The translations under genes were made by a program, and so were the position numbers. Of a DNA stretch of 64,000 bases, positions 8,432-58,470 are shown one piece after another; within the stretch, counting starts at the first letter, position 1, and each line of letters starts with the position of its first letter. The notes beneath the pieces were generated by a model. That model was not told the DNA's origin. It saw only the letters and a program-made list of their open reading frames with translations, and ran no database searches. The stretch covers positions 3,816,268-3,880,267 of the forward strand of contig OZ271831.1 of the NCBI GenBank assembly GCA_965601455.1, in the 5' to 3' direction. This DNA is from Cyclobacteriaceae bacterium. GTDB lineage: Bacteria > Bacteroidota > Bacteroidia > Cytophagales > Cyclobacteriaceae.

Positions 8432-8557
8432 GGAAAATCTTATTGTAAAATGATCGTATTGGATTGCACTTTGAGGTAATATCTAGGTACGTAAGAAGGA
8501 GCTTCCCAAGGTCCTGGCTTAGAAGACACCTTCAAAATCTTATGGTATTTAGCCTTT

Positions 8558-8878: not shown

Positions 8879-8889
8879 AATCGTCGAAT

Positions 8890-19376: not shown

Positions 19377-19485
19377 GATACAATTTTTTATAAGCAAATT
19401 GCAATGAACCCTTTTGACAGAATCGCTACTTTAATAAGCGCTGGGGTACTTCTAATGAACGCATGGTTCACTTTAAGGAAATACC

Positions 19486-34513: not shown

Positions 34514-35008
34514 GTGGAAGAATCCGAATTTGTCAACGAAATAACCAGCAACCAAGCTATTATTCATAAGGTGTGTAGAATGTATACACCTAAGGGAGAG
34601 CCCTACGATGACATCTTCCAGGAAATTCTTCTTCAGCTCTGGAAATCACAATCTAGTTACGACCCTAACCGAAATACCAAGTTTACCACATGGATGTACC
34701 GTGTTGCACTAAACACAGCCATCAATTCACTAAGAAAGTCGAAAAAGAATCTACAGCTGGAGCAAATCAATGAAGACCTCAATGTCTTGGAATCTGACGA
34801 AGACGATTCAGAAAGAAGTTTGGATCAGATGCACGCTGCCATTGACCAACTGGAAAAAGTTGAAAAGGGACTCATCCTTCTTTACCTGGACGACAGATCA
34901 TACAAAGAAATGGCGGAGATCATGGGGATCTCTGAGAGCAATATTGGAGTGAGAATTAACAGAATTAAGAAAAAGTTGAAATCAATAATGACCGAAAGCG
35001 ATGGATGA
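34514..35008 (+). CDS. RNA polymerase ECF-type sigma-70 factor
   Basis: GTG start. Region 2 (DIFQEILLQLWKSQSSYDPNRNTKFTTWMYRVALNTAINSLRK) and region 4 (LILLYLDDRSYKEMAEIMGISESNIGVRINRIKKKL) are both present. Confidence 0.85.
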   Translation: MEESEFVNEITSNQAIIHKVCRMYTPKGEPYDDIFQEILLQLWKSQSSYDPNRNTKFTTWMYRVALNTAINSLRKSKKNLQLEQINEDLNVLESDEDDSERSLDQMHAAIDQLEKVEKGLILLYLDDRSYKEMAEIMGISESNIGVRINRIKKKLKSIMTESDG

Positions 35009-35597
35009 ACTATTAGAAAACTACAGGAAAGAAAGATTCTCTGACCAAAAGATGGATTCTTATTCATCGCAGCATATTCAAAGTTTGATCAGAGAAGGGT
35101 CTGACAAAAGACTGGGAAAGATTAAACTCAATATTAAGATCGAACTGCTTTTGGCGGTTATCATCTCATTGGCAGTTTTCTTTTTCGTATGGTTAAATTT
35201 CATTGAAAGCTGGAAGTTGATCTATACTGCATTTATAGTTACGCTGACTTCCACTTTTTATTTCCTGCTGTACCGAAGAATCAAAGGTCTTTCATTTACA
35301 AAATCAGATGTAAAAACATCCTTACAACAGGCCATTGATTACCTGGAGTCAACATTTAAGTTGTACTACCGTATGACCGTTTTCGGTTTTCCCTCTCTCT
35401 ATTTCGGATTTCTCATCCCGGCGCACTACCTCAAATATGGCTCGTTTTCAGGCTTATTAGAGGAAAATATTTTGCTATTGCTCATAGGCCTGGGAATATC
35501 AATCACGTTACCTCCTACAACTCGCTGGATAATAAAATACGTCTATCAAAAACACATTGACGAGCTAAAAACCAATCTGAATATTTTAAAAAATTAA
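35001..35597 (+). CDS. Membrane protein, possible anti-sigma partner
   Basis: It overlaps the sigma gene by 8 nt. It has about 4 TM helices and no zinc-finger anti-sigma motif. Confidence 0.4.
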   Translation: MDELLENYRKERFSDQKMDSYSSQHIQSLIREGSDKRLGKIKLNIKIELLLAVIISLAVFFFVWLNFIESWKLIYTAFIVTLTSTFYFLLYRRIKGLSFTKSDVKTSLQQAIDYLESTFKLYYRMTVFGFPSLYFGFLIPAHYLKYGSFSGLLEENILLLLIGLGISITLPPTTRWIIKYVYQKHIDELKTNLNILKN

Positions 35598-35667
35598 GGT
35601 CCGTTGTAAGTTTTTTCCAAATCTGCTAATCATGGGGAAAACAAGGTTTAACTAAAAACAGAATACA

Positions 35668-40325: not shown

Positions 40326-40352
40326 AGCCGGAGCATAGCTCTGGCTTTTTTT
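40326..40352 (+). terminator. Rho-independent terminator after yceI-like gene
   Basis: agccggagc-ata-gctctggct followed by tttttt. Confidence 0.6.
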
Positions 40353-40923
40353 ATTTATTCTGTAGCCTTTCAACTGGTATAACAAGGTCTTGCTTTGGAA
40401 TGAACTCTGGTATTCCACCTGGAAATCTACAATACATAATGTATTCCTTTTTCAATCTACCATAGCCTTTTATGATGGTAGATTGTCTACTCTTTTCAAT
40501 CCCGGCGGCCAATCCACCAGTTAATAAGGTCGCTGCACTTATCACAAGAAACCCGGGTTCTCCATGCATCATAGCTCCCAATAATGAGGGTGTTAATGCA
40601 ACCATTGTGAAACCCATAGTTTTCCTTGCCCTATTCTGGACCGGATGAATCTCATAATTCTTGATCTTTCTTTGATTCACCGATTTTATTCCATTCAATT
40701 CCATAACGCAAACTGAATCAGAGTCGAAACTGATTAACTCCCCTTTCACGATTACGTCCCCTAATGCAATTTCTATCCATGACCCGAACGTACTGTTTTC
40801 TATATAGGTATCGGACCGGCTTGAATGAACCGGCACTACCATATTATAATATTTAGCCTCCGGAGAGCAGCTAGATAGAGTGATGTATAGAAGTAGGGAT
40901 AACCTATTTATCCAAGTAATCAT
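40351..40923 (-). CDS. Hypothetical lipoprotein with a glycine-zipper-like membrane segment
   Basis: The ATG at 40923 gives MITWINRLSLLLYITLSSC (lipobox). A later segment reads GFTMVALTPSLLGAMMHGEPGFLVISAATLLTGGLAAG. Confidence 0.4.
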   Translation of the reverse strand: MITWINRLSLLLYITLSSCSPEAKYYNMVVPVHSSRSDTYIENSTFGSWIEIALGDVIVKGELISFDSDSVCVMELNGIKSVNQRKIKNYEIHPVQNRARKTMGFTMVALTPSLLGAMMHGEPGFLVISAATLLTGGLAAGIEKSRQSTIIKGYGRLKKEYIMYCRFPGGIPEFIPKQDLVIPVERLQNK

Positions 40924-42496
40924 CACTATTGAATTTACTTTTCCAGAACAAAGAATCCATCTTATCCTCAACTTTTACATAATCAGGAGTCATCAGTTTT
41001 AACCACTTGTTCGGATTGAATATTAGTGTTCTCACCATATTCTGATCTTCGCATTTTAACCATTCACTTCGCATCCACTCCACGTAATAGCCTTCAGAAC
41101 GTATAAATGGTGTTACACCACTGGGTAATTCAAAAACCAGTAATTGTGAGTCTCCGGGTTGGTTAACCTTATACAAGTCGTTGGAAGTGTATAACCGCAA
41201 GTCTTTTTCACTTGCTTCATAGTTTACCAAAACCTCTTTAGGGTAAATAATGCTGAAATCAAGAGGTGATACTATGGATGCCACCTGAACAGCATCTATT
41301 CTCCACAAACCTTTGGTAAAGGTCAATCTCACTCTTGAGAAGCTTCCGTCTCGTTCCACAGGTAATAAATGACTTTCTGAAGCAATTGGACCTTGTTCGT
41401 TAATTATGCCAATGCTGACCCATTGATTATCCATCCAAACACTTACTTCGATTCCCCCTAAAATATCATAGATGGTCTTCTGTGCGGATCGAACCCTCGG
41501 ATCAGATCGTTCATATTTCGCAATCCATTCACCTATCCTTGAACCCATCTGCCCCATAGCCTCATAAAAGAGAAATGTAGTCATGAGAGATTGCCTTTTG
41601 GTGACTATTACGCTACCAACTTGCCCGTCTTGCTCAGGGAATTCCAAAACGATAGATTCTCTGGTAGCCAGATGTATAGAGTCACTTTTACTTAGATATT
41701 CGCGCTTGTCTATTTTTTGAAGATGAGATAATTCAACTATACTACCACCATCAATACCAATGGCCATTGATGGTTTATTGGTGCCAAGAAACTGGCTTTC
41801 ACCCCAGTATACGTTAAGTTTTTGTGGATTATGCACGCCGAGGATCTCCACCTTTTTGATGTAGTGTGTTTCCATGGCTTCGTTTTTTACTTTGAGTAAA
41901 AGCTCACTGCCACCATCGACATAATTTGGTAGAGGATCGATATCCTCCTCTTCTAAAGAACGCGAAATACTTGATGAGAAACCCTCAGCTTGCAGTATCT
42001 CTTCCCCGTCATTCATTAGATAGAAAGTAGGGCATGAACCAAAACATGACTTTGGATTCATGATGCAATAGATTGCTCCTATACCTGTGAAGGTGGTTAA
42101 GGTCATTAGCATAGGCGAAATCAGGTTCCAGCCTTTGGTCTCATTAACCTCAATCAGGACAATATCATCGAAGTTTAGTGTGATGTTTTCCAAAGACCAT
42201 TTAGTGCCTCCAATTCTTGATCGATTAATCCCGAATTCATAGCCCTTACATATTAATTCCTGATTTTCATGATCAACCACTATCACCTCAGCTACATACA
42301 AGTGTCCTTTTCTATCATGAATTTTAACTTTATCCGGTTTATTAAGAGTATAGCTTTCTTGCCCAATCAGGGATTCAATCTCTTCAACTTCTACCACCGA
42401 TCGATTAACCGCTATTTTGTAGGTACAGGAGTAAACACTCCATATAAAAAAGGCTAAAAAAAGGCCAAAAAGGGAATATTTTGACCAATTAGACAT
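40904..42496 (-). CDS. Hypothetical lipoprotein (530 aa)
   Basis: It has a signal/lipobox (FIWSVYSC) and no recognised domain. Confidence 0.45.
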   Translation of the reverse strand: MSNWSKYSLFGLFLAFFIWSVYSCTYKIAVNRSVVEVEEIESLIGQESYTLNKPDKVKIHDRKGHLYVAEVIVVDHENQELICKGYEFGINRSRIGGTKWSLENITLNFDDIVLIEVNETKGWNLISPMLMTLTTFTGIGAIYCIMNPKSCFGSCPTFYLMNDGEEILQAEGFSSSISRSLEEEDIDPLPNYVDGGSELLLKVKNEAMETHYIKKVEILGVHNPQKLNVYWGESQFLGTNKPSMAIGIDGGSIVELSHLQKIDKREYLSKSDSIHLATRESIVLEFPEQDGQVGSVIVTKRQSLMTTFLFYEAMGQMGSRIGEWIAKYERSDPRVRSAQKTIYDILGGIEVSVWMDNQWVSIGIINEQGPIASESHLLPVERDGSFSRVRLTFTKGLWRIDAVQVASIVSPLDFSIIYPKEVLVNYEASEKDLRLYTSNDLYKVNQPGDSQLLVFELPSGVTPFIRSEGYYVEWMRSEWLKCEDQNMVRTLIFNPNKWLKLMTPDYVKVEDKMDSLFWKSKFNSDDYLDK

Positions 42497-42542: not shown

Positions 42543-42590
42543 CTAGGAATGCATCCAACCCTGTGCTTGGAGCTCCACTGTGTCCCTTAA
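42543..42590 (-). pseudogene. Displaced remnant of the thiL 3' end (last ~15 codons plus stop)
   Basis: The minus-strand translation is LRDTVELQAQGWMHS*, against the intact thiL C-terminus QNVVELQAQGWKHFE*. At the DNA level, 42548-42578 matches 51032-51062 at 28/31. Confidence 0.6.
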
Positions 42591-42621: not shown

Positions 42622-42659
42622 CCTAAAGTATCTGCGACAAATCCTAAAGTCTGTGCGAC
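42622..42659 (+). promoter_or_regulatory. Tandem direct repeat, 17 bp - 4 bp - 17 bp (CCTAAAGTATCTGCGAC aaat CCTAAAGTCTGTGCGAC); candidate AraC-type activator site
   Basis: The two 17-mers are 15/17 identical with a 21-bp period. The element ends 75 nt upstream of the ATG at 42735 and about 32 nt upstream of a TAnnTTTG-like box (tattttta, 42691-42698). The same architecture occurs at 50667-50704. Confidence 0.5.
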
Positions 42660-42734: not shown

Positions 42735-44846
42735 ATGATCGAACAAAAAGGTTTTGTCTTGACACAAGAAAATAATTTGCGTAATTTCATTGGGACCAAC
42801 CGGCCTCAACCACCGATGAATCATCCGGAAAAATCCGATCCTGCCAAAGATCATGGAAGTAATGATCCCGTTTCCATGGATGAAGTTTTTCTTGAAAAGA
42901 TCAAAAAGGCTATTGACGAAAACCTTGAAACCAGGAATTTTGGGGTAGACGAACTTGGGAAGGAAATCGGTATGAGCCGTTCGCAGATTCATCGAAAAAT
43001 GCAGGCTCTGGGTGACATCTCACCTTCCAAGTACATCAGAACAAGAAAACTACAAAAAGCTAGAGAATACTTGCAAAAAAACGTAGGCAACGTATCCGAA
43101 ATATCGTTCCGTCTTGGATTTAGTAGCCCAGCCTACTTTACACAAGTATACACCGCTGAATTTGGTTATCCTCCTAGTGAAGAAGAACGAATAAGTCCTG
43201 CGGAAGCAGCAAAACTAATTCTATCGAAAGACGGTAAAGGTTCCACGCGAAAACTGGCCGCGATCATGTTTACGGATATCGTCGGATATACTACGTTGAT
43301 GGGCAAGAACGAACAAAAAGGCCTCGAGATACTTCGCCAGAGTCGTGAAATCCAAAAACCATTAGTAGAAGCGAATGGAGGAAAATGGCTAAAGGAAATG
43401 GGGGATGGTGTGCTCACACAGTTCGATAGCGCATATGATTGTGTACTCTGTGCTCTGCGAATTCAAAGAGCCGCGACCATGGGATTCGAGGCTAAAATTC
43501 GAATAGGTATTCACCTGGGAGACATTACTATCGAAGGCGATGATGTTTTTGGTGACGGAGTTAACATAGCCTCAAGATTGCAGGACATTGCCGATCCGGG
43601 AGGTATCTACATCTCAGAATCTATTCAAAAGGCATTACGGGGTCGATCGGAAATCCAATACCAACACCTAGGTGAGATCCAGCTCAAAAACGTCGATTAC
43701 CTGGTTAACACTTTTTGCCTGGTTGATGAAAGTCTACCCTCCCCTGCCGCATCCAGAATTCAAAAACTACGTGCCTCCAGCATTCGCGACACACATGCCC
43801 CACTATCCAATGTAAATGATGAACTTATCTTGGAAGTTTTTGACGAATTGACCCGGGCCAAACCTTCTGTTAAACGCTACCTCGAGATCCTCGAAGAGGA
43901 GGAGGAAGAACCAGATATTCGGGAGCTGGCGGATCTCATCATTAGAAACTATCCATGGATTATTGGTGTGGAACTCCGTAGGCTATTCTCAGGATCACTG
44001 CGGGCATTGGATAAGGACCGATTAGAACAAATACTCACTACCATCCACCGCTCCTTACAGTTCTTAGCCTATCTCTTAATCATTGAGCTCTACGAAAGAA
44101 TACTGGATGGCTCGATATCCGTCAACCCTGATTTTCAGACCAATTTCAAATCTCGATTCCTGGAACTTTCACATGACGACTATCTGTGGATTATCGCCGA
44201 GACAAACCAGGTAATGAAGGGAATTGACAGGTTCATTCCTGAGCTCTCGGAAAATATTGATGAACAGTTTATCCAAGGACTGGAATTGGAAATCCCAAAA
44301 CGGGACTATACCGGTGGGTTTAAGATAGAATTGAATGAAGAGGAACTGGCAAAAAAATGCTTCGAATACCAGGAAGTACTCACCTTCATTTTAAAACGAC
44401 TGGCTGTCCTTACTCCTTATAAGCTTGTCACTATCAAAGAGATTAAAGTATTAAAGACCCGAAGGGAAAAGGCCCTGTTTGAGCATTGGATGGATATTCT
44501 GAGCAACAACAATTCGGATTTCCGCTCCAAGGAAGAAACATTCGATTCATTCTCGGACAGCAATTCCGTTTTGCTCATGAAAAGTCTGAAACGACCAGAC
44601 CATTTCCTGAATTTATCGCCATTTATTATCGATACTCGGGGTGAATCAATGGATTCGCGGGAAAAGTTTGATCTTAAAAAAGACATATTCGTTTGTGAAG
44701 GACTGGCAAATAACAGCCTTAGATACGTAGGGACCGAAATAGCGGAAGAATGTGATCTTGGAAGCCTAAGCAACTATCAAAAACTGGTAGAGGAATTTCG
44801 GGACATCACGAACCTTGATGGAAGCGCGAAAGGAGGTGAATCATGA
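42735..44846 (+). CDS. AraC-type HTH + class III adenylate/guanylate cyclase domain + C-terminal alpha-helical domain of unknown function
   Basis: The HTH spans about aa 48-147 (GMSRSQIHRKMQALGDISPSKYIRTRKLQKAREYL...ISFRLGFSSPAYFTQVYTAEFGYPPSE). The cyclase spans about aa 173-330 (AAIMFTDIVGYTTLMG, WLKEMGDGVL, IRIGIHLGDI, DDVFGDGVNIASRL). The remaining ~340 aa are helical with no recognised family. Confidence 0.85.
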   Translation: MIEQKGFVLTQENNLRNFIGTNRPQPPMNHPEKSDPAKDHGSNDPVSMDEVFLEKIKKAIDENLETRNFGVDELGKEIGMSRSQIHRKMQALGDISPSKYIRTRKLQKAREYLQKNVGNVSEISFRLGFSSPAYFTQVYTAEFGYPPSEEERISPAEAAKLILSKDGKGSTRKLAAIMFTDIVGYTTLMGKNEQKGLEILRQSREIQKPLVEANGGKWLKEMGDGVLTQFDSAYDCVLCALRIQRAATMGFEAKIRIGIHLGDITIEGDDVFGDGVNIASRLQDIADPGGIYISESIQKALRGRSEIQYQHLGEIQLKNVDYLVNTFCLVDESLPSPAASRIQKLRASSIRDTHAPLSNVNDELILEVFDELTRAKPSVKRYLEILEEEEEEPDIRELADLIIRNYPWIIGVELRRLFSGSLRALDKDRLEQILTTIHRSLQFLAYLLIIELYERILDGSISVNPDFQTNFKSRFLELSHDDYLWIIAETNQVMKGIDRFIPELSENIDEQFIQGLELEIPKRDYTGGFKIELNEEELAKKCFEYQEVLTFILKRLAVLTPYKLVTIKEIKVLKTRREKALFEHWMDILSNNNSDFRSKEETFDSFSDSNSVLLMKSLKRPDHFLNLSPFIIDTRGESMDSREKFDLKKDIFVCEGLANNSLRYVGTEIAEECDLGSLSNYQKLVEEFRDITNLDGSAKGGES

Positions 44847-47737
44847 CTGCTCAGTCTCCATTCAAATTTCTTGATAGTTATACCGAACAGGATCGTGAGA
44901 TATTTTTTGGAAGAGACCAGGAAATTGAGGAAGTCTACAAGAAAGTGTTCCAGGGTCAGACCCTTTTCATCTACGGCGAATCCGGGACCGGCAAATCAAG
45001 TTTGATCAGTTGTGGGCTGGCTAATCGATTCAAGAAATCCGATTGGTTACCCGTTCATGTCCGTCGTGGGGAAAATATCAATGAATCTCTAACACGTGAA
45101 ATAAAGAAAACCGGTTTGACAGACATAAGCCTCAATGGAGACTCAAGGAATAACCTGTTCAAACTTACAAGATCCCTCTATCTGGATTTCTTCAAACCCA
45201 TCTATTTCATTTTTGATCAATTTGAGGAATTATATCTGCTGGGAGATAAAGAGGAATGGGAAGAATTCGTGGGTGGCATTAAAGCACTTTCCGAAAAGGA
45301 ATTGAATGTTCATTTCATCTTTATCATCCGCTCAGAATACCTGCATTTTCTATCCGAATTCGAATACGAGTTACCGGAAATCTTTAACAATAAGATTCGC
45401 GTGGAGAAAATCACTCGAACAAAAGCCAGGGAGTGCATTGAAGGACCGTGCAATGTATTTGACATAGAACTTGAAAAGGACTTCACGGATCAACTTTTTG
45501 ATAAGCTAAGCCCTGACAGCATAGAAGTAGAGCTTACCTATTTGCAGGTTTACCTGGATCGCGTGTATAAGCTTGCAAGTTCTAAAGCCGAGGACGATAA
45601 GGTGGTTTTCTCCAATTCTCTACTGGAGGATATTGGACTCGTGAGTGACGTACTATCTGATTTTCTGGATGAGCAAATTGAGGAAATGCCCAATCAGGAA
45701 TCTGCTCTAAACACACTAAAGGCATTTGTTACGGTTGATGGTACCAAGAAACAGGTGAACACTGAGGAGGTTGTCAGCTTTGCCCAGTCCATAGGGAAGA
45801 GTTTAAATGAGGTACAAGCACAGCAGGTAATCAATGAGTTGCTTGAGAGAAGAATTCTTAAGGAGATTCCGGACCTCAAAAAATTTGAACTTCGGCACGA
45901 TGCGCTTGCCCTGAAGATATATGAGAAGATCACTATTCGTGAACGTGAACTGATCGAGGTTAAGCAATTCCTGGAATATGGACTGGCAGAGTATCAAAAA
46001 CGGAAATTCCTACTTAACGATAAAGACCTGGCATACATCGAACCTCATTTGCCTCAACTCAACCTGAGAGGGGAAATAAAGGAGTTTGTGGACGAAAGCA
46101 TGGATCAGGCCGGCAGAAAGCGAAGAATTCGAAAGCGTGTTATAGCGATTGTTGCCATTATAATTATCCTCCTGATCACCTCTGTAATCGGATTTATACT
46201 TGCCCAACAGCAACGTGAGCAAGCGTTACTCCAAAAAGAAATCGCTGAAGAAAATGCGTATGAGGCAGAAGAGCAGAAAAAGCTCGCAGAAATCAATGCC
46301 TCTTTGGCTGTAGAAGCCCAGGATGAGGCCGAAAAAAATGCCGAAGAAGCTTCCAGGCAGGCATTCATAGCCCAGGAAAATGAACAACTCGCAAAGGAAC
46401 AGGCATCAATCGCAGAACAACAAAGGAGTCTGGCTCAAGAGCAACGAGTAGAAGCAGAATCACAAAGAGAACAGGCTATTGAGCAACGACAAATAGCCGA
46501 AAATCAGCGCCGAAGAGCGGAAGAACAAACAGTAATTGCCCAGGAAGCCCTGCAACAAATAGAGAAATTAAGGATTCTATCAAATGCTGTAAGCCTGGCT
46601 AATAAGTCTATTGCTTTACGACAGGAACCTTTGAAAAGTCAACTGGCCCTTCAAGCCTATTCATTTTACTCTTCTCAGCCTGTCGAGGGCAGAAACTCTT
46701 CAATACTAAATGCCCTGCACTTCGCCATGAAAAGTCAATTTGGGCCCGAGTACAACGTACTTCAGGGACATACGGGTAGAATCAATCAGATTCACTTATC
46801 GAATAATGACTTTTTCTCCCTGGAAGATGCGGGCAAACTACTTCAGTGGACGATGGCTGACGGGAAATTTGAGAGCCACGAGTTCATGAAAATTGAGGAG
46901 ACTTCCGGGATCAGCCGTAGGGTAAACGCATTATCCGAAAATAACGAGGGTCACTTTCTGGTCAGTACAGGATCTAATCTCTTTTGGTACATTCGAGAGG
47001 AGGTATTAACTCCCATCGAACTCAAGCAATTTAAGGGAACAGTTATCAAAATTCTTCCGGGCGATTCGATATGGACCATTTTATCCAGTGATCAGATCGT
47101 CACCCTATCCATTAATGACGACAATTCTTTAAACACCAGGTACCGACAGTTCGAAACTCAAATTGTAGATGCAGCTCGATTCAATGATGAATACTTGCTT
47201 CTTAGCCAGGAAGGGGTAAGTATTTACGACCGAACAAGGGACTCAGTTCGCAATACCAACTATACTCTGGAACCATTTCCAACCAAGATCGCATACTCAG
47301 CTAAAAGAAATGAAGTGGCTATTGGGAACGGCGAAGGACAGGTAATCCTATACAATCCGGATGACCAACAAATCATTGAACGGTTTCCCGGACATACATC
47401 CATCATTTCTGTACTGCAATTCTCAGACACTGACAACAAGCTCATATCAGCGGGATTTGATCGAGTAGTCAATATCTGGGACCTGGAAGACTTTGGCCAG
47501 GAACCGCTTCAATTCGCGGATCATGATCAGTTTGTCACTGCCGTTGGATACAGTTTGGTCAATCAGTTAATCGTGGTTGGTGAAATAGACGGAACCTTAA
47601 ACTACTATAACCTGGACTCCGATGTGTCCTACAAGCGTTTATGCCAATCGGTTGACGAAGCGATGAATGCTGCAACCTGGGAAAGGTATGTCGGAAATGA
47701 ATTTGAATATAACCCCTATAAATGCGAAGAAAAATGA
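44843..47737 (+). CDS. STAND-class P-loop NTPase (nSTAND1-like) - single TM - long coiled coil - WD40 beta-propeller
   Basis: The N-terminus is SPFKFLDSYTEQDREIFFGRDQEIEEV, with Walker A GESGTGKSS and Walker B IYFIFDQFEEL. A winged-helix-like FELRHDALALKIY follows. A basic cluster RKRRIRKR precedes the TM helix VIAIVAIIIILLITSVIGFILA (aa 433-454). An ~125-aa Q/E/A-rich coiled coil comes next. WD40 blades include GHTGRINQIH...LLQW and GHTSIISVLQFSDTDNKLISAGFDRVVNIWDL. The start overlaps the upstream stop (ATGA). Confidence 0.8.
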   Translation: MTAQSPFKFLDSYTEQDREIFFGRDQEIEEVYKKVFQGQTLFIYGESGTGKSSLISCGLANRFKKSDWLPVHVRRGENINESLTREIKKTGLTDISLNGDSRNNLFKLTRSLYLDFFKPIYFIFDQFEELYLLGDKEEWEEFVGGIKALSEKELNVHFIFIIRSEYLHFLSEFEYELPEIFNNKIRVEKITRTKARECIEGPCNVFDIELEKDFTDQLFDKLSPDSIEVELTYLQVYLDRVYKLASSKAEDDKVVFSNSLLEDIGLVSDVLSDFLDEQIEEMPNQESALNTLKAFVTVDGTKKQVNTEEVVSFAQSIGKSLNEVQAQQVINELLERRILKEIPDLKKFELRHDALALKIYEKITIRERELIEVKQFLEYGLAEYQKRKFLLNDKDLAYIEPHLPQLNLRGEIKEFVDESMDQAGRKRRIRKRVIAIVAIIIILLITSVIGFILAQQQREQALLQKEIAEENAYEAEEQKKLAEINASLAVEAQDEAEKNAEEASRQAFIAQENEQLAKEQASIAEQQRSLAQEQRVEAESQREQAIEQRQIAENQRRRAEEQTVIAQEALQQIEKLRILSNAVSLANKSIALRQEPLKSQLALQAYSFYSSQPVEGRNSSILNALHFAMKSQFGPEYNVLQGHTGRINQIHLSNNDFFSLEDAGKLLQWTMADGKFESHEFMKIEETSGISRRVNALSENNEGHFLVSTGSNLFWYIREEVLTPIELKQFKGTVIKILPGDSIWTILSSDQIVTLSINDDNSLNTRYRQFETQIVDAARFNDEYLLLSQEGVSIYDRTRDSVRNTNYTLEPFPTKIAYSAKRNEVAIGNGEGQVILYNPDDQQIIERFPGHTSIISVLQFSDTDNKLISAGFDRVVNIWDLEDFGQEPLQFADHDQFVTAVGYSLVNQLIVVGEIDGTLNYYNLDSDVSYKRLCQSVDEAMNAATWERYVGNEFEYNPYKCEEK

Positions 47738-48768
47738 GAAAATCATCTATCGTTCCCATTTTAATCATCTTACTGGTTCTGGTAGCTAATCCAGCAAAGT
47801 CCCAATGCGGAAAAAACCTGGAGGACGCTAGACGAGCGTATTACAATGGAGATTTCAGATCAGTGGAATCTTTGCTTGAAGACTGCTTGGAAACATTCTC
47901 GGACGAAGAGAAAATCGAAGCATACAAGCTTTTAACCAACATGTATCTCCTTTGGAATAACCAGGAAAAAGCTGATCAATCAATGTTCAGGTTTTTGGAA
48001 TTGAATCCATACTATACCTTGAGGGAGAGCGACCTGGTAGAATTCCAGGAACTGCATAAGGAGTACAAGGTAAAGACCCGGTTCACATACGGATTCAGTG
48101 TTGGATACCTGCATTCGGATTACATCATCATGCAACATCAGAGCCTGGCAGGAACCACTGAGGAGCCAGCGGATTACAAGGAATTTCCGGGGATTATCGT
48201 AGGAGTCACCGGTGATTATCGCTTGTATAAAGATTTCTATGCAAATGTCGGCCTCTTGTATTCACGAAGGAGCATGAGGCAGCAGGAAGAGATTCTCGAA
48301 TACCAAAAGGTAGCCAGCTTCGAGAAAGACCATTTCCTAAACATCCCCCTCCAAATTCGATACATCGCAGATTTTCGTACCATAAAGCCTTTTTTGGGAG
48401 GGGGTTATGGTGCACACATTCTGTTGCAATCCCAGGGAGATATTGATCGGATTCCACTAGAACCCGATTTTCCTAGTATTGTAGGAATAGCCGAGCAGAC
48501 CACTGACTATAACCTCACCAAACAAAGGCGAAAGTTGACGCATAATTGGAATGCCAGTACAGGTGTAATTATCGACTTCAATCAGTTTCTGGTAGAATTA
48601 AAAGCTACCTATCAATTGGGCATTAACAATGAAATCAACAGGAATTACTGGCTGAAGAATACGGAATTAACCGAAGTCTATGCCTTCGTCTCTGATGACT
48701 ATCGGATTGATAGTTACCTGTTTACGATCTCCCTATTAAGAAATATTTCTAACCCCATAAAGAATTGA
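47722..48768 (+). CDS. Secreted TPR-like N-domain + outer-membrane beta-barrel (PorT/OMP_b-brl-like) protein
   Basis: It has a signal peptide (IVPILIILLVLVANPAKSQ). A TPR-like segment follows (ARRAYYNGDFRSVESLLEDCLE...AYKLLTNMYLLWNNQEKADQSMFRFLELNPYY). The rest shows amphipathic beta-strands (FTYGFSVGY, IIVGVTGDYRL, ANVGLLYSR, LNIPLQIRYIA, PFLGGGYGAHILL, FLVELKATYQLGI). An alternative ATG at 47734 gives an ATGA overlap with the upstream stop. Confidence 0.55.
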   Translation: MRRKMRKSSIVPILIILLVLVANPAKSQCGKNLEDARRAYYNGDFRSVESLLEDCLETFSDEEKIEAYKLLTNMYLLWNNQEKADQSMFRFLELNPYYTLRESDLVEFQELHKEYKVKTRFTYGFSVGYLHSDYIIMQHQSLAGTTEEPADYKEFPGIIVGVTGDYRLYKDFYANVGLLYSRRSMRQQEEILEYQKVASFEKDHFLNIPLQIRYIADFRTIKPFLGGGYGAHILLQSQGDIDRIPLEPDFPSIVGIAEQTTDYNLTKQRRKLTHNWNASTGVIIDFNQFLVELKATYQLGINNEINRNYWLKNTELTEVYAFVSDDYRIDSYLFTISLLRNISNPIKN

Positions 48769-48770
48769 TC

Positions 48771-50090
48771 ATGAAAAAGTACATGTACCTATTCTTACTG
48801 ATTTTACTAGTTTCCTGTATTGAAGAATTAGATCCGGTAAATACTAGTTTTGAAAAATTCTACGGATATAACCTTTCATCAGATGACAGTGGATTACTGA
48901 AGCTGGAAAATGGAAACCTTCTGGTTTACGGATCTGCCATACGAACTTCCATGTCAACGTCAGTAACTGACGAAACATTTGCCAGATTATCTACTCTCGC
49001 TCAGGATGCGGAAATGCCATTCTTTATAGAAGTAGATGAAAATGGCAATGAAATCAGGAAAGCCATGTTCCCATTGGGGAATTTCGACTATTCACATAAC
49101 TTCTATGAATTATTTGGGGTTGAAAGTTTAAATACCGAACTGGCTTGGTTTAAGAAAGTAATCCAACTCAATGATGGTTCATTGATGGCGATCACGTCGG
49201 TAGTAACAAACAATTTTTTTTGGGTAGAGGATATAGTACTGATCATTTCTCCAGAGGATTTTCAGGTGAAGGAGCTTTACCTTATGCATAACTCTGAGAC
49301 TGAATTTGTTGAAACTGAATTTGTCCATCGCGGGATTGAAAAATGTCTCAAAAAAGATGATGGCTCAGTACTGTGCTTAACCGATAGTGAATACTATCCT
49401 CCTTACGAGGGAGGATATCGAAAATTCTATTCAATTATTGAATTTGCAGAAGACGGACAAATTAATCGAATATTCGATTTCGACAATGATCTCTCTGGTG
49501 CTTTCTTCATGGACTTCGTTATTGAAAATGAAGGAAATATTACATTGATTCATGGAAATTTCACCAATCCGAACCTCACTTTTGTCAAGGAAATTAACAT
49601 AAATACAGGGAATATACTCAGTGAAAATTCCGTTGAAATCCCTGCCAATTACGATTTCATCCTTAGAGCAAATCACCTCCTCTTACGAACAGAAAATGGG
49701 TATGCAATTCATGCACAAGATCGTGATACGTTTTCTCCGTTATACCTCTTCGACAATTCCTTTACATTATTGGATTCAACCAACTACATAAATAAGCAGG
49801 GAGTTGATGATGTGTGTTACATAAATGGGTTTATCCCTCTCAAGGACGGTGGATTTTGTAGTCTAGGCTACCCTTGCGAAGGGAACTCCGTTATCACAAA
49901 GTTGGACCAAGAAGGAAAAATTTTATGGGAGTTCTATGAAGCTCATAATAACCTGGATGGAAATCTAACCGGGCATTTGATGGAAACTGAAGACGGAGGA
50001 ATACTTCATTTATCCACAAAAAATTTCAACAATTCCGGCGCAAAACTGAGACTTCTTAAATTGGATAGGAATGGAAAAATTAGCAATTAA
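48771..50090 (+). CDS. Hypothetical lipoprotein, possibly beta-propeller-like
   Basis: The ATG at 48771 gives MKKYMYLFLLILLVSC (lipobox). DG-hydrophobic strand motifs recur (NDGSLMAITS, DDGSVLCLTDS, KDGGFCSLGY, EDGGILHLST). Confidence 0.45.
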   Translation: MKKYMYLFLLILLVSCIEELDPVNTSFEKFYGYNLSSDDSGLLKLENGNLLVYGSAIRTSMSTSVTDETFARLSTLAQDAEMPFFIEVDENGNEIRKAMFPLGNFDYSHNFYELFGVESLNTELAWFKKVIQLNDGSLMAITSVVTNNFFWVEDIVLIISPEDFQVKELYLMHNSETEFVETEFVHRGIEKCLKKDDGSVLCLTDSEYYPPYEGGYRKFYSIIEFAEDGQINRIFDFDNDLSGAFFMDFVIENEGNITLIHGNFTNPNLTFVKEININTGNILSENSVEIPANYDFILRANHLLLRTENGYAIHAQDRDTFSPLYLFDNSFTLLDSTNYINKQGVDDVCYINGFIPLKDGGFCSLGYPCEGNSVITKLDQEGKILWEFYEAHNNLDGNLTGHLMETEDGGILHLSTKNFNNSGAKLRLLKLDRNGKISN

Positions 50091-50595
50091 ACTAGTACTC
50101 GTGACTTCTCTTGTATTGAGTTTTGGATGTGACACAAAACTGGATTTAGAAAGAGAACCACTGAACCCATTGCATAATAATTGGCAATTCAATTTCATTC
50201 GAATTGATGATGAATGGCATAGTTTCGTAAATGAAGATTTTGAACCACCCCTATTCGATGAATTGTGGATTGGATGGTATTGGGTTGAATACAATGAAGA
50301 TAACTTTTACGACTTTAGAACAGATCTTTTACCAACTGAATATGGTACCAATGAAAACTATCAACCTGGATACGGGACTTATCAATATTTTCCGGAGGAA
50401 ATGCTATTAATCCATAATCCAGGAATGCCGTATGAAGTTTCCTACAATATCATTGAACTGAGTGATACAATGTTTATCAGGGAATATGAACGAATTATTC
50501 AGGTGGAAAACTTTGATAGTATTCCCATTGGGACTTCCGTTACTTATAGGGAGGTTTTGATTCCAAGAGAAATATACTATTCCGAAGAAGAGTGA
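50071..50595 (+). CDS. Hypothetical small lipoprotein
   Basis: MEKLAIKLVLVTSLVLSFGC (lipobox). It overlaps the upstream gene by 20 nt and is rich in aromatic and acidic residues. Confidence 0.45.
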   Translation: MEKLAIKLVLVTSLVLSFGCDTKLDLEREPLNPLHNNWQFNFIRIDDEWHSFVNEDFEPPLFDELWIGWYWVEYNEDNFYDFRTDLLPTEYGTNENYQPGYGTYQYFPEEMLLIHNPGMPYEVSYNIIELSDTMFIREYERIIQVENFDSIPIGTSVTYREVLIPREIYYSEEE

Positions 50596-50666: not shown

Positions 50667-50704
50667 CCTAAAACACATGCGACAAATCCTTAAATCCATG
50701 CGAC
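50667..50704 (+). promoter_or_regulatory. Second copy of the 17-4-17 direct-repeat motif (CCTAAAACACATGCGAC aaat CCTTAAATCCATGCGAC)
   Basis: It matches 42622-42659 at 30/38, with an identical aaat spacer and a similar 3' flank (GTGATTTT vs GTAATTCT). It lies 42-57 nt upstream of the small lipoprotein gene's candidate start codons. Confidence 0.5.
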
Positions 50705-50746: not shown

Positions 50747-50968
50747 ATGAACCAAACAAAAATGAAAACGATGAAAACTTATTCAATTCTACTAACGGCG
50801 ATTCTTACTCTTGGACTTTTTTCTTGTGAACTGGATGATGCTGATATTCAGCGTGAAGATCCTACGGACAACCTTTCTTTCAATGCCTCAGACCGCGTAA
50901 GTGACCAGGACGATTCAGATGACATAAAAGCTAACAGCGGTGGTCATGTCGAAGGGAACTACAAGTGA
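50747..50968 (+). CDS. Small acidic lipoprotein (about 68-73 aa)
   Basis: MNQTKMKTMKTYSILLTAILTLGLFSC (lipobox) is followed by a D/E/S-rich tail. The start could also be the ATG at 50762. The track's GTG at 50705 lies inside the repeat motif. Confidence 0.4.
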   Translation: MNQTKMKTMKTYSILLTAILTLGLFSCELDDADIQREDPTDNLSFNASDRVSDQDDSDDIKANSGGHVEGNYK

Positions 50969-50988: not shown

Positions 50989-51026
50989 AAAAGCTCGAAT
51001 TTCTTAAGAAATTCGAGCTTTTTTTA
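50989..51026. terminator. Bidirectional terminator: 17-bp perfect palindrome abutting the thiL stop
   Basis: aaaagctcgaatttctt|aagaaattcgagctttt, with a T7 run on the plus strand and T4 on the minus strand. Confidence 0.7.
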
Positions 51027-52061
51027 TTCAAAATGTTTCCAACCCTGCGCTTGGAGCTCCACCACATTCTGACTGCGAGTAACCATCACTTTCCCCTTTT
51101 CTTTCGGGTGCATGTAGCCTATGGTATGAATATCCGGATGATTCTTAAGCTTCTCAAAGTCATCCTGATGAATAGTGAATAGCAACTCGTAATCCTCTCC
51201 CCCATTCAACGCAGCAGCATTGGGATCGATCTGGAACTCTGCTGCAGTCTCAAAAGCCTGCTTGTCGATAGGTAGCTTATCTTCATAGATACTCACTCCA
51301 AGATCAGAGTTCTTACAAATATGGAAGACATCGGATACTAATCCGTCGGATACATCAATCATTGAAGTCGGTTTTACACCTAAATCCTTTAACTCATGAA
51401 TGATATCCATACGTGCATTCGGACGAAGTTGTCTGCCCACTATGTAATTATACTCCTCAAGCTTTGGTTGCATTTCGGGATTGGCCAGGAACTCTTGCTT
51501 TTCTCTCTCAAGTACTTGCAAACCCATATATGCAGCACCTAAATCGCCAGTTACGCATAATATATCTCCATCCTTTGCCCCATTTCTATAAACAATGTCT
51601 TTTTCCACCGCGTAGCCAATGATCGATATGGAAATGACCAAACCAGCTGCAGAAGCGGTAGTGTCCCCCCCGACGATATCAAGATTATAGTTTTTTGCTG
51701 CAGCTTGAATACCTTCATATAGCAACTCCACAGCCTCAACGCTAAAGCGGTTGGATAAACCCAGGTTCACTGTGACCTGATGCGGAATTCCATTCATGGC
51801 TGCTATATCAGATACATTCACCGCTATGGATTTGTATCCGAGGTGTTGCAGTGGCATATACGATAAATCAAAATGTATGCCTTCTAATAACATATCAGAG
51901 CTAATCAGCATCAGCTGACCTTCTTGTCCGCCCAATACCGCCGCATCATCTCCGACACCTTTTATAGTATTGGGTGACTTCGTGGTTATCCCTTTGGAAA
52001 GTCTTTCAATCAATCCAAATTCACCCAAATCGGAGATTTCCGTTCGTTTTTCTTCGCTCAT
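51024..52061 (-). CDS. thiL: Thiamine-monophosphate kinase
   Basis: It has AIR-synthase-related fold motifs (GEFGLIERL, GVGDDAAVL, LISSDMLLEGIHF, GGDTT). Confidence 0.9.
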   Translation of the reverse strand: MSEEKRTEISDLGEFGLIERLSKGITTKSPNTIKGVGDDAAVLGGQEGQLMLISSDMLLEGIHFDLSYMPLQHLGYKSIAVNVSDIAAMNGIPHQVTVNLGLSNRFSVEAVELLYEGIQAAAKNYNLDIVGGDTTASAAGLVISISIIGYAVEKDIVYRNGAKDGDILCVTGDLGAAYMGLQVLEREKQEFLANPEMQPKLEEYNYIVGRQLRPNARMDIIHELKDLGVKPTSMIDVSDGLVSDVFHICKNSDLGVSIYEDKLPIDKQAFETAAEFQIDPNAAALNGGEDYELLFTIHQDDFEKLKNHPDIHTIGYMHPKEKGKVMVTRSQNVVELQAQGWKHFE

Positions 52062-52951: not shown

Positions 52952-53277
52952 TGATTAGTGTTACAGATAAGGCAAAAGAAAGAATAGTTGAACTTAGAAA
53001 AGAAGAAGGGCACGGAATGGATTACAATGTCCGTGTATCGGTAAAAGGTGGAGGTTGTTCTGGTCTGATGTACGACCTCGATTTTGACAATGCAATTTCC
53101 GATGGAGACGATGTATTTGAAGACAAAGGAGTAAAAATCATTGTTGATAAAAGGAGTCTTCTGTACTTGCTTGGAACAACCCTGGAATTCTCTGATGGAT
53201 TAAATGGTAAAGGTTTTCAATTCATCAATCCGAATGCCTCAAGAACTTGCGGCTGTGGAGAAAGCTTTGCGGTCTAA
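52951..53277 (+). CDS. Iron-sulfur cluster insertion/assembly accessory protein (HesB/IscA/ErpA family)
   Basis: It has [11 protein letters not shown] and the C-terminal CGCGESF motif. Confidence 0.9.
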
Positions 53278-53300
53278 ATAAGTTACGAAAACGTTTTAAA

Positions 53301-53331
53301 AGGCCCTCAGGAGTTCCTGAGGGCCTTTTTT
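53301..53331 (+). terminator. Rho-independent terminator
   Basis: aggccctcagg-agtt-cctgagggcct followed by tttttt. Confidence 0.8.
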
Positions 53332-53501
53332 ATTTCCTTTCTCCTTTCACCGAACTATTTAAACCTTTAATTCCCGTACAATCACTGTCTATTCCGGTTC
53401 AATCCAAGTTGTCCCGCCTGATACTTGAAAAATATTCTCTGACTAAGGTCGCTTATACATTTGTAATTGTTATTAAACCGCAAACAACGACCACAGTGCA
53501 A

Positions 53502-55721
53502 ATGCCAGAGAAGAAACAAACCAACAGCAAAGGCTTTCAAAAGAAAGTCTTTAGATGGGGTGTAGGAAACCGGATAAGTGCCGGGTTCTTTTCCCTGATC
53601 ATCATTATTGCTATTAGTGGGGTATATACTTCGACCACGCTCAATAGTAGTATCCGGACGCTCAACCGGATTTCAGAAGAAGTGAATCCAACACTGGAGC
53701 TTCTTAATCAATTTGGTGAAACCATCAAGGATGCCAAGACCTATACTGTTAACTGGGTCTACGTAAGGACCTACCAGAAAGACAAACAAAACCTTCGGGA
53801 AATCCATGCAAGCGTCTACCCGTCTCAGAAGGCAGATCTATTGGAGGTAATCAATAATAACCCTTCAGATAGTTCACTCGCTACTATTGCCGGTATGATG
53901 GACGAGTTTGAGGGCATTTTGGCTGATCAAACTACCATAATGGAATCCCTGTCCAGTGCGATAAACTACGAGGATCCAATGATGCTTTTCATTTGTGAGG
54001 ATCTCGTTGAAAACAGTGTAATACCTACCTCAGATGACCTGCTAAGCCAATTAAATGAAGTGATAAGCATTCAAAATGCAGCTTCTGAAGAAACAAAAGC
54101 TGGTATGCTAGGTTCGTTTCAGCGCACACAATTGATTATACTGATCTTTGGTATTGCAGGAGCTCTCCTTGGACTGGTCATATCCATCATTCTGACCAGG
54201 GGCATCACAACTCCCGTAAACCGCCTGCACAATAAGATCGAACAAATCAGAAAAGGAATTATCCCGGAGGAAATAGAAGACAAATCAAAAGATGAAATTG
54301 GTGAAATGAGCCGTGGAATCAACGCCCTAATTAAGGGATTCCGGTCAACATCTGAATTTGCAAGAGAGATAGGAGTTGGAAACCTGGAAACCGACTACGA
54401 GGCCCTCAGTGAAGACGATGTCCTGGGTCATTCACTTCTATCCATGCGAGATAATCTTAAAAAGGTATTAGGTGAGACTAACACAGTAGTCAGACAGGCC
54501 GGTGAAGAAGGTCAACTTGAGTCCAGGATTGATTTAGCCGGGAAGACAGGGGCTTGGCACAAATTGGGCCAGGCAATAAACAACCTGCTCAACTCTATTG
54601 TCACTCCGATCATGGAGGTCAACAGAATCATGAATCATATTGCACAGGGAGATCTAAGCCACAATTACGAATCTGAGGCAAAAGGAGAAATTCAGACTCT
54701 TGTGACCAATATGAACATGGCAATTGAAAATCTTAATGCACTTCTTCATAGCATAGCCGAAAATGCAGGCATCGTGGGCGAATCCTCCACGGAGATGCTT
54801 AACGGCAGCGCCGAGATGAGTGCGAATACTGGTGAAATTGCTTCCGCAATCAGTCAAATGAGTATCGGAGCACAGAACCAGGTTGGTAAAGTGGACGAAT
54901 CGTCGAGTTTTGTTGAGGCCATTGGAAATTCATCTAGAGAGATGGAATCCAAAGCAACATCAATTAAAGATGCTGCCAGCTCCAGTGTGGAAAGTAGTGA
55001 GAAAGGCAAGGAGCGAGTAGAAAATGTTGTGGCAAATATGGAAGAGATTTCATTTGCGGCCTCAAAAACTCACGAGTCGATATCCATTCTGACTGAAAGA
55101 TCAGGAGAAATTGAAAGAGTCCTAGGTGTCATTACTGACATCTCTTCTCAGACCAACCTACTTGCCTTGAACGCGGCTATCGAAGCGGCACAGGCCGGCG
55201 ATGCCGGTAGAGGTTTCGCAGTGGTTGCGGAGGAAATCAGGAAACTGGCAGAGGACTCAAGAAAATCAGCGAAAGAAATTGAGAAACTGGTAGGCGACGT
55301 ACAAAGTGATACAAAAGAAGCCAGCAACGCCATCGAAACTATGAACAATAGTGTTTCCATTGGTAGTACAGCTTCGAAGGAAGCGGCAGAGGCCTTTAAT
55401 GAAATCCTGCAGTCTACAAGCGAAACACTGGAGCTTTCAGAAGAGATCGTTTCCAGTGCTAAACAGCAAATTGATAACTCAAATAATATTGCAAGCATCA
55501 CGGAAAGCATCGTGGTGATCGCCGAACAGACGGCTACCGGAACTGAGGAGATTGCAAGCTCAGCCTCCGAATTATCCAACGGTATGCAGAACTATAACAC
55601 CAAGTCCAAGCAGTTAACGATGGTCGCATCGTCCTTGAACGAAAGTGTATCCAAGTTCAAGCTGTCTACTTCACAGAAAGAAGTGAATGGTCAGGAACTT
55701 GATGAATTTGAATTAGTATAA
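53502..55721 (+). CDS. Methyl-accepting chemotaxis protein-type transducer (periplasmic sensor, 2 TM, two HAMP-like modules, MCP signalling domain)
   Basis: The ATG at 53502 ([12 protein letters not shown]...) lies downstream of the terminator. TM1 is [15 protein letters not shown] and TM2 is [21 protein letters not shown]. The HAMP module reads [14 protein letters not shown]...[14 protein letters not shown]. The signalling hairpin is [37 protein letters not shown]. Confidence 0.85.
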
Positions 55722-56243: not shown

Positions 56244-56323
56244 AATCAAGTACAAATATCAACTTCTAAAACAGGCCTAATGGCCTGAACGGTAGCCCTT
56301 TGCCTAAAAAACCAATCAAAATT

Positions 56324-58363: not shown

Positions 58364-58470
58364 GGAATCAATAATTACATAACAAGAAAAAGAAAAAGAC
58401 AAATAAATTAAGGGCTCCTGGTCACTGACCGATCATACCAGGTATCCCAACCATTAACTCATAAATTATC

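Follow-up and report, generated by a model that had tools for sequence, protein, structure and literature searches.

A conserved Bacteroidota gene cluster combining a membrane-anchored STAND NTPase, a new adaptor-like domain, and dedicated envelope proteins

Introduction

STAND NTPases and their NLR-like members are understood as cytoplasmic sensors. The closest described relatives of the locus studied here are the conflict systems built around nSTAND1 NTPases (PF20703) that were described by Kaur, Iyer, Burroughs, and Aravind in 2021, in which an effector or effector-associated domain (EAD) sits N-terminally on the NTPase and the sensor (FGS, TPR, or WD40) is cytoplasmic (PMC8195603); membrane-associated two-gene systems of another kind were presented in an Aravind-group paper (PMC7159879). 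We analyzed 64,000 nucleotides from a Cyclobacteriaceae bacterium (GenBank assembly GCA_965601455.1, contig OZ271831.1, positions 3,816,268 to 3,880,267; "the window" throughout), which carry on the + strand a cluster of 5 consecutive genes, A to E, and a small gene F behind them. Here, the sensor of the STAND protein B is predicted to lie beyond the inner membrane and has dedicated outer-membrane partners; the STAND switch would extend to signaling across the envelope. Our analyses of sequences and structural models point to a real, conserved, and mobile Bacteroidota cluster that appears to be a variant of STAND-based signaling and conflict systems, with all statements on its function inferred. 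Its distinguishing features are an adaptor-like C-terminal domain on protein A (CTD), a membrane NTPase with a predicted extracytoplasmic sensor, a dedicated barrel, and interchangeable outputs. The genes are the following:

42735..44846, + strand: gene A, 703 residues; AraC helix-turn-helix (HTH), class III cyclase, and CTD
44843..47737, + strand: gene B, 964 residues; membrane-anchored nSTAND1 NTPase with WD40 repeats
47734..48768 (alternative ATG at 47722), + strand: gene C, 344 residues from the ATG at 47734; outer-membrane barrel
48771..50090, + strand: gene D, 439 residues; lipoprotein (LLVSC|IEELD) with beta-propeller-type repeats
50071..50595, + strand: gene E, 174 residues; small lipoprotein of an unnamed family
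50747..50968, + strand: gene F, 73 residues; small acidic lipoprotein (LGLFSC|ELDDAD)

Protein B belongs to the same clade as the NTPases of nSTAND1 conflict systems and likewise carries C-terminal repeat domains, and relatives of protein A carry effector types familiar from these systems (caspase/CHAT, TIR, and cyclases making cyclic nucleotides, cNMPs). In contrast, the NTPase of B has no N-terminal domain and the effector belongs to a second protein, connected via the CTD, the sensor of B is predicted to lie beyond a transmembrane (TM) helix, and outer-membrane proteins are part of the operon. Antiviral STAND proteins of the Avs and NLR-like kind resemble the locus in their repeat sensor, their STAND switch, and an effector activated on oligomerization, but an Avs protein is one cytoplasmic chain that binds phage proteins intracellularly, whereas here the sensor is predicted to be extracytoplasmic, the output includes transcription, and B has no Avs match in PADLOC.

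Similarities also exist to regulatory systems. MalT-type proteins share a STAND NTPase that gates a DNA-binding output on a signal, with autoregulated target promoters, but MalT has a LuxR-type HTH on the same soluble polypeptide, whereas here an AraC-type HTH is found on a partner protein and the NTPase is membrane-anchored. The order of outer-membrane protein, periplasm-spanning inner-membrane protein, and cytoplasmic transcription factor controlling its own locus is reminiscent of FecA-FecR-FecI and of SusC-like/anti-sigma/extracytoplasmic function (ECF) sigma factor systems; however, there is no homology, the transducer here is an NTPase, the locus has no TonB box, anti-sigma factor, or sigma factor, and its barrel would have 8 to 10 strands versus 22. 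Pycsar likewise uses a class III-type cyclase as signal generator, and A gives a weak match to its cyclase PycC, but Pycsar consists of 2 genes for a cyclase and a cNMP-binding effector, and no such effector is encoded in the cluster. Finally, the receptor cyclases of Bacteroidota (cyclase/TolB-like/TPR proteins of ~680 residues) have a cyclase 60% to 68% identical to that of A, and both seem to connect a sensor outside the cytoplasm with a cyclase inside it; the receptor cyclases are single polypeptides, whereas here sensor and cyclase sit on separate proteins joined by the CTD and the STAND switch.

The CTD and a membrane-anchored NTPase form the conserved core

Protein A consists of 3 parts, and the last of these is the new conserved domain:

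Residues 76-149 (42960-43181), + strand: AraC-type HTH, by profile match
Residues 175-319 (43257-43691), + strand: class III cyclase, by profile match
Residues ~355-703 (43797-44843), + strand: CTD, by conservation

The initial annotation had missed this domain of ~350 residues as well as gene F, operator-like repeats, and a 25-bp flanking duplication that are described below. The CTD is soluble, has no TM or hydrophobic helices, and is modeled as helical at first and rich in beta structure thereafter (pLDDT 79, pTM 0.82). Its strongly conserved motifs are PW.IGVELRRLFSG, YKLVTIKEIKV, F.H, SDSN.VLL.K, LNLSP.IIDT, and KKDIF, and many polar positions are invariant (E, R, H, D-S-N, D-T, and K-K-D among them). 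The domain has no match in Pfam, NCBIfam, or PADLOC, its profile finds nothing among PDB sequences even at E ≤ 10, and a Foldseek comparison of its model to PDB and BFVD gave no match either (best E values 0.046 and 0.057 with TM-scores below 0.25).

An exhaustive HMMER search placed the CTD family at 424 representative clusters, and we counted architectures in the best 150 of them. The commonest fusion places a CHAT protease domain N-terminal to the CTD (70 of 150); next come standalone CTD proteins of ~345 residues (37, plus 27 fragments), AraC-CTD (6), and AraC-cyclase-CTD (4). Protein A itself is a CTD protein that gained AraC and cyclase domains. One giant protein of 2089 residues (P0261) combines a caspase, a weak TIR match, a CTD, a CHAT domain, and Fib_succ_major. 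The CTD is, in summary of these architectures and of the gene pairs described below, a new and widespread domain that links STAND NTPases to outputs of the CHAT, TIR, cyclase, or AraC kind, and it offers a handle for finding further STAND-coupled systems.

Protein B is organized as follows, all on the + strand:

Residues 6-356, + strand: nSTAND1 NTPase, predicted to be cytoplasmic, by profile match
Residues ~437-458 (46151-46216), + strand: TM helix, by hydrophobicity
Residues 461-575 (46223-46567), + strand: Glu/Ala/Gln-rich predicted long helix
Residues 576-964 (46568-47734), + strand: WD40 propeller region, predicted to be periplasmic

The nSTAND1 match of B (PF20703) reaches 132.4 bits against a cut-off of 27.1 and covers profile positions 1 to 341 of 379, and its Walker A (GESGTGKS, residues 45-52) and Walker B (YFIFDQFE, residues 121-128) motifs are invariant in 12 orthologues. 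B starts directly with this NTPase module and has no N-terminal effector or EAD. The only hydrophobic helix is preceded by RKRRIRKR and followed by a stretch of 115 residues that is 60% Glu, Ala, and Gln, after which the WD40 repeats begin. The NTPase is thus predicted to be cytoplasmic and the propeller periplasmic; we place the propeller outside the cytoplasm because of the positive-inside charge rule and the secreted partners of B.

A scan of species-representative genomes yielded at least 215 CTD loci, of which we analyzed the best 80, nearly all labelled Bacteroidota. Among those with room for a next gene (78), 70 have a B-type nSTAND1 gene directly 3' of the CTD gene, with a gap of ≤130 bp in 61 of these 70. 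This pairing includes CHAT-CTD genes (L007, L090, and L091) and AraC-CTD genes (L092 and L093), all followed by nSTAND1 genes. Whatever the C-terminal region, 55 of 57 B proteins of ≥480 residues have a hydrophobic helix at residues 400 to 520. The conserved core of the system is therefore a two-gene pair of a CTD protein and a membrane-anchored nSTAND1 protein and not a set of 5 equal partners.

Neither A nor B matches an EAD family, and an hhalign comparison of the CTD with the N-terminal 430 residues of B gave no match, so we rejected a homotypic, EAD-like link; as the CTD and the cytoplasmic part of B share no domain, their coupling is not of the homotypic EAD type known from other STAND conflict systems. 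Two candidate identities of the CTD were also considered. EACC1 was rejected; it belongs to a two-gene system in which a small single-TM EACC1 protein adjoins a caspase-fused protein (PMC7159879), whereas the CTD is soluble and ~350 residues long, and an identity as Pepco or another protease-linked module finds no support in any family match.

The many invariant polar residues of the CTD would also suit a different explanation, in which the domain is itself a latent effector (e.g., a toxin or a module licensed by proteolysis), B is its NTP-dependent regulator, the outcome is growth arrest or cell death, and the AraC and cyclase parts are secondary additions in the A lineage. It is in line with such a role that most CTD proteins stand alone without another output domain and that CHAT-CTD fusions resemble the protease-effector modules of bioRxiv 10.1101/2025.11.14.688446. 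However, neither sequence nor fold relates the CTD to a known toxin, pore-former, or enzyme; it has no hydrophobic helices and tolerates fusion to regulatory domains, and nothing indicates that it is cleaved. We regard an effector CTD as improbable and favor its reading as an adaptor.

Several loci have multiplied members of the core pair. Two to five membrane nSTAND1 genes are found in or near tandem in L085, L039, L040, L056, and L069, and 2 CTD genes, in tandem or (L029) divergent, in L029, L055, L086, and L087, which suggests local paralogue expansion. Locus L006 (11632-17185) has a cyclase-CTD protein without HTH beside a split system on the opposite strand that comprises genes for an nSTAND1 protein (331 residues), a TPR protein, an unknown protein, a WD40 protein (551 residues), and an ECF sigma factor.

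The five-gene arrangement is conserved while outputs are exchanged

Full-length relatives of A share 38% to 65% identity and fall into ~20 sequence clusters, a few of them labelled Cyclobacteriaceae. Every related contig long enough to judge (5 of 5) keeps A-B-C together with 2 lipoprotein genes:

L001: A-B-C-D-E, then a second C-D-E set
L002: A-B-C-E-D, in a frameshifted assembly
L003: A-B-C-D and another lipoprotein
L004: A-B-C-D-E
L088: A'-B-C-D-E

The flanking genes differ, with Fic and Y-family polymerase genes in L001, RND efflux genes in L002, and YceI and AIRS-family genes in the window. The initial annotation had proposed that the 5 genes belong together as one module, and they do co-occur over the whole range of A identity and in varied genomic contexts. 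The barrel gene is moreover tied to one type of B: among 35 complete B proteins with TM helix, coiled coil, and WD40 repeats, 33 have room for a next gene, and a C-like barrel gene follows these ~940- to 990-residue (~965) proteins in 31 of the 33 loci but B proteins with other C-terminal regions in 0 of 17. Chance adjacency of 5 unrelated genes could appeal to nothing more than short gene overlaps being common, and it is excluded by a gene order conserved across unrelated flanks down to 38% A identity as well as by this link of C to WD40-type B; we give it practically no weight. The second C-D-E set of L001 is complete (17834-20791), so that the outward-facing parts are duplicated there while A and B are single.

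The output domain of the system varies. In L088, all 5 proteins are homologous to those of the window, but a TIR domain (starting DVFISYRHND) stands in front of AraC-CTD instead of the cyclase. Across the family, the CTD is preceded by AraC-cyclase, TIR-AraC, AraC alone, CHAT, or no output domain. At standalone-CTD loci of Cyclobacteriaceae, Chryseolinea, and Chitinophagales, the operon ends with a gene for a TPR-cyclase protein of 684 residues; in L009 to L020 (e.g., L012, 18761-20815), this TPR and class III cyclase gene comes after one or two genes for lipoproteins of ~630 residues without assigned family. With a cyclase fused into A and a TPR-cyclase gene in standalone-CTD operons, cyclases are tied to the system in 2 independent ways. 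Divergently upstream of the CTD gene, 7 Bacteroidales loci (L026, L032, L038, L041, L050, L061, and L067; at about 7900-9900 on the - strand) carry a gene of ~615 residues for a TPR-SpoIIE (PP2C) phosphatase, which may be another output of the system. The outputs are thus interchangeable in that the cyclase can be exchanged for TIR or CHAT, and such output swapping is typical of conflict systems (PMC7159879, PMC8195603). The existence of cyclase and TIR variants permits a comparison of second-messenger use, defense versus regulation, within one kind of system.

Protein A carries an AraC-type DNA-binding domain and a class III cyclase

The N-terminal part of A matches HTH_18 with 60.4 bits (cut-off 33.6) and HTH_AraC with 32 bits (cut-off 26.6), so that a double-HTH domain of the AraC/XylS type is present. 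The cyclase domain matches Guanylate_cyc (PF00211) with 51 bits (cut-off 21.9) and retains the 2 metal-binding Asp residues (FTD and GDG), the substrate Lys, and the Asn and Arg of GVNIASR; its FTD, KEMGDG, and GVNIASR motifs align with those of Ma1120, Rv1900c, and 3mr7. Judged by these residues, the cyclase looks catalytically intact. It is 60% to 68% identical to the domains of a large family of receptor-type cyclases in Bacteroidota, with these and adenylyl cyclases of the Ma1120 and Rv1900c type as its closest relatives, while the PADLOC profile of PycC matches only weakly (29 bits). No cNMP-binding protein is encoded in or beside the cluster among the genes of the window. One A orthologue, P0020 (L004, 703-3273), has 2 cyclase-like domains, one on either side of the HTH, with degenerate metal-binding motifs in both, and these domains are probably non-catalytic. 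cAMP-type signaling in Bacteroidota is poorly understood, and the cluster would link it to a defined input device.

The envelope proteins diverge rapidly, and some may be surface-exposed

Protein C has a signal peptide and matches OMP_b-brl_2 with 35.2 bits (cut-off 27). A word-index homologue search found only 2 relatives of it, and the AlphaFold model was built from 3 sequences only (pLDDT 77); it comprises a TPR-like periplasmic N-terminal domain of 4 helices and a small barrel for which Foldseek ranks OmpW, the OmpA TM domain, Ail, and OmpX highest (E values of ~1e-7, probability 1.0). Weaker profile matches of C stay below threshold, both to PorT/SprT (28 bits versus a cut-off of 125) and to TssQ (27 versus 65).

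These matches, along with the periplasmic WD40 domain of the type IX secretion system (T9SS) protein PorE (PMC7192894), are what speaks for an accessory role of the cluster in envelope biogenesis or secretion, such as type IX secretion or gliding, with B as energizing ATPase and A as local regulator. Yet they reflect generic barrel and TPR features only, the cluster has no linked genes for a T9SS, a type VI secretion system, or Lol/Bam, STAND NTPases act as switches rather than motors, and the cluster is absent from close relatives, unlike a core envelope function. An accessory role of this kind is very improbable in our estimation.

By their signal peptides, D and E are lipoproteins, and neither matches anything in the family libraries; the word-index search with D returned nothing beyond D itself. 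A profile of D and its orthologues matches the beta-propeller repeats of CylK (E value 7e-4) with 6 repeated stretches, and E has the conserved motifs NYQP.FG.W and LIHN. Directly after the lipidated Cys, acidic residues are found in D (CIEELD), in its orthologues (CLDDFE, CSDDNL, and CVEEVPD), and in F (CELDDAD), and less clearly in E. The lipoprotein export signal of Bacteroidota was experimentally defined as C-X-K-(D/E)2, SDDDD, or SDDFE (PMC5080379). The acidic motifs of D, its orthologues, and F resemble this signal, and surface exposure is plausible. Lipoprotein genes follow C in many loci, but their families differ and change fast, and D and E themselves were recognized only in AraC-type loci.

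The cytoplasmic parts of the window and L001 proteins share 74% (HTH), 73% (cyclase), 67% (NTPase), and 61% (CTD) identity, compared to 27% for the WD40 region, 32% to 44% for C, 23% to 27% for D, and 33% to 37% for E. By this comparison, envelope-facing parts appear to evolve much faster than cytoplasmic parts. Overall, the series of locations from cytoplasm to outer membrane that had been proposed for the gene products holds up at the level of prediction, based on the charge rule for B, the similarity of the C model to OmpW-, OmpA-, and OmpX-type barrels, and the lipoboxes of D and E.

A candidate operator is shared by the operon and gene F

Direct repeats of a 17-bp unit precede both gene A and gene F:

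42622..42659, + strand: candidate operator O_A, a pair of 17-bp units CCTAAAGTnnnTGCGAC whose starts are 21 bp apart
50667..50704, + strand: candidate operator O_F, 17-bp units CCTAAAAcacaTGCGAC and CCTTAAAtccaTGCGAC, 21 bp apart

O_A sits ~76 to 113 nt upstream of the A ATG, and the 4 units of O_A and O_F are the only copies in the 64-kb window at ≤2 mismatches. Bipartite direct repeats phased by 2 helical turns are typical of AraC/XylS binding sites. Every A orthologue with an AraC domain has an equivalent 21-bp-phased direct repeat upstream, and the sequence of this repeat drifts with the protein:

L002, upstream repeat: CCTAAAGT...TGCGAC
L001 and L003, upstream repeat: CCTATAAT...TGCAAC
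L004, L088, and L092, upstream repeat: AACCTATGTTG...

The simplest reading of these sequences is that A would regulate its own operon and F via the repeats, with binding by A inferred from their position and conservation only. F is probably in the same regulon as the operon; none of the related loci examined yielded a copy of it. A candidate operator and a small regulon make the system directly testable. A scan for sigma-70 promoters gave fewer matches than shuffled sequence, and its consensus is not that of Bacteroidota; an Rfam scan of the window found nothing but a tRNA-Lys.

The cluster may be a trans-envelope surveillance module

On balance we favor, with somewhat more confidence than doubt, reading the cluster as an accessory module for NTP-gated sensing across the envelope that probably serves envelope surveillance and has cNMP and transcriptional outputs. 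B would reside in the inner membrane with its NTPase facing the cytoplasm, and its WD40 propeller would reach into the periplasm on the long helical stalk and meet the periplasmic TPR-like domain of the C barrel, which would cooperate with the lipoproteins D (a beta-propeller and probably surface-exposed) and E. A surface or periplasmic event would alter the propeller, upon which B would switch its nucleotide state, oligomerize like STAND proteins, and act on A through the CTD. The active site of class III cyclases is formed by an obligate dimer; A molecules brought together by B would assemble such a site and produce cAMP or another cNMP. The 2 AraC domains of paired A would at the same time be set on the 21-bp-phased direct repeat and activate the operon itself and the lipoprotein gene F.

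Since sister systems carry TIR or CHAT in place of the cyclase, the cue is most likely an envelope attack by a phage or competitor and not a nutrient. A role in defense is also in keeping with the nSTAND1 clade of the NTPase, the accessory nature of the cluster, the rapid divergence of its envelope-facing parts, and the tandem B paralogues and duplicated CTD genes of some loci. The conflict flavor proposed initially has thus been strengthened by relatives in which the CTD is fused to CHAT or TIR, and the suggestion that the system is uncharacterized agrees with our searches: PADLOC calls no system, and full-text literature on nSTAND1, EACC1, and STAND proteins with periplasmic WD40 domains in Bacteroidetes (subscription journals being outside its coverage) does not describe this arrangement. 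PADLOC profiles matched B only through the P-loop of mad8 (16.8 bits) and not through any Avs model, and C, D, and E gave nothing relevant.

The same hardware could instead serve as a regulatory sensor for a benign environmental or nutritional cue (a surface polymer, contact, or the osmotic state) without any role in immunity, analogous to the SusC-like/anti-sigma/ECF sigma factor systems of Bacteroidota and to their hybrid two-component systems with AraC outputs. The outputs in the window are indeed regulatory, consisting of a cyclase closely related to the receptor-type enzymes and an AraC HTH with an operator that looks autoregulatory, and the TPR-cyclase genes of standalone-CTD operons, the divergent TPR-SpoIIE genes of Bacteroidales, and the absence of a defense-island context at related loci fit a benign sensor as well. 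Against this stand CHAT as the commonest fusion partner of the CTD, the replacement of the cyclase by TIR in the sister five-gene system L088, the predicted conflict systems from which nSTAND1 is otherwise known (PMC8195603), the very fast divergence of envelope-facing parts, the tandem B paralogues and the duplicated C-D-E set of L001, and the location of an accessory cluster in a variable genomic slot. We rank envelope surveillance first and a benign regulatory sensor, which we hold to be rather unlikely, second; the relay would be identical in both.

Several points nevertheless count against surveillance with a cNMP output. The outputs in the A lineage are regulatory, catalysis seems not always to be retained in A orthologues (as judged from the degenerate motifs of P0020), and the cluster itself contains no gene for a cNMP receptor or a downstream effector. 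The CTD could be an effector rather than an adaptor. Moreover, no PADLOC system model matches, and 103 genes upstream of related loci, mostly metabolic or housekeeping, show no enrichment of defense genes.

A bolder proposal is that B represents an NLR-like (STAND) receptor surveying the outside of the cytoplasm, the first such family, and thus an "outside-in" innate immune receptor with a transcriptional arm; we put this forward tentatively and think it doubtful. If true, a periplasmic WD40 propeller with its own barrel and fast-evolving surface lipoproteins would detect attack by phages or competitors, the NTPase would relay this across the inner membrane, and the adaptor domain would switch TIR, CHAT, cNMP cyclase, or AraC outputs.

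The cluster is accessory and was probably inserted at a repeat

The 3' boundary of the cluster and its flanks are marked by the following features:

42554..42578, no strand: 25-bp direct repeat, left copy TCCAACCCTGTGCTTGGAGCTCCAC; duplicated end of the AIRS-family gene
50989..51022, + strand: intrinsic terminator with perfect 17-bp arms followed by a T run; closes the cluster
51024-52061, - strand: AIRS-family gene
51038..51062, no strand: 25-bp direct repeat, right copy; within the true 3' end of the AIRS-family gene

The 2 copies of the repeat are identical at 24 of 25 positions and the only ones in the 64 kb, where none would be expected by chance, and they bracket exactly the operator, genes A to F, and the terminator (8.48 kb). 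On the - strand, the left copy reads as a duplicated AIRS gene end (VELQAQGWMHS*, i.e., VELQAQGW and then a new stop) and looks like an att-type boundary. Syntenic relatives with 70% to 74% identity of the AIRS protein keep the order FeS-g52544-glyoxalase-AIRS ... YceI-DUF3109, but the gap between AIRS and YceI measures 56 bp to 2.1 kb in these relatives versus 10.7 kb in the window, and the cluster is absent from all of them. The cluster is accessory and was probably inserted at the site of the 25-bp repeat. The initial annotation had located it on an inserted island, and this holds up only in part. The duplication and the synteny break speak for insertion, while other findings speak against a classical island: no integrase is found among the genes of the window, GC content is flat at 0.40 to 0.43 without any shift, and neighbors of related loci are not enriched in defense genes. 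The sole tRNA lies 16 kb away from the cluster.

Between the cluster and YceI, 2 overlapping open reading frames (ORFs) of 206 and 530 residues without Pfam match are found on the - strand (40351-42496). The syntenic relatives lack these ORFs too, and the gap between AIRS and YceI is thus a variable slot with more than one insert.

Gene junctions and neighboring genes

We re-read each gene junction directly from the sequence and found the 5 + strand ORFs and their spacing as annotated initially; the domains we predict agree with that annotation as well. A and B share an ATGA at 44843-46 (-4 nt), C starts at 47722 (-16 nt) or with the ATGA at 47734 (-4 nt) relative to the end of B, the C stop at 48768 is followed by the D ATG at 48771 (+2 nt), and the E ATG at 50071 precedes the D stop at 50090 (-20 nt). 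Short gene overlaps are common in operons and little proof alone; taken by themselves, overlaps of this size indicate that genes A to E are probably co-transcribed. The fixed stoichiometry that had been deduced from them falls away, as overlapping genes give no ground for inferring it. No terminator-like site was found on the + strand at any junction of A to E, and the only strong one is that at 50989-51022. A strong Shine-Dalgarno-like AGGAGG is located 7 nt 5' of the B ATG inside the end of A (44826-44842); Bacteroidota mostly do without Shine-Dalgarno sites, which makes this one unusual.

Farther away in the window, an ECF sigma factor gene stands in front of an unknown ORF of 198 residues and a gene for a transglutaminase-like protein of 617 residues (34514-37521); this group may be a sigma/anti-sigma unit. 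On the other side of the cluster, a methyl-accepting chemotaxis protein of 824 residues with several HAMP domains (53247-55721) is adjoined by 2 genes for TonB-dependent receptors (56300-60885).

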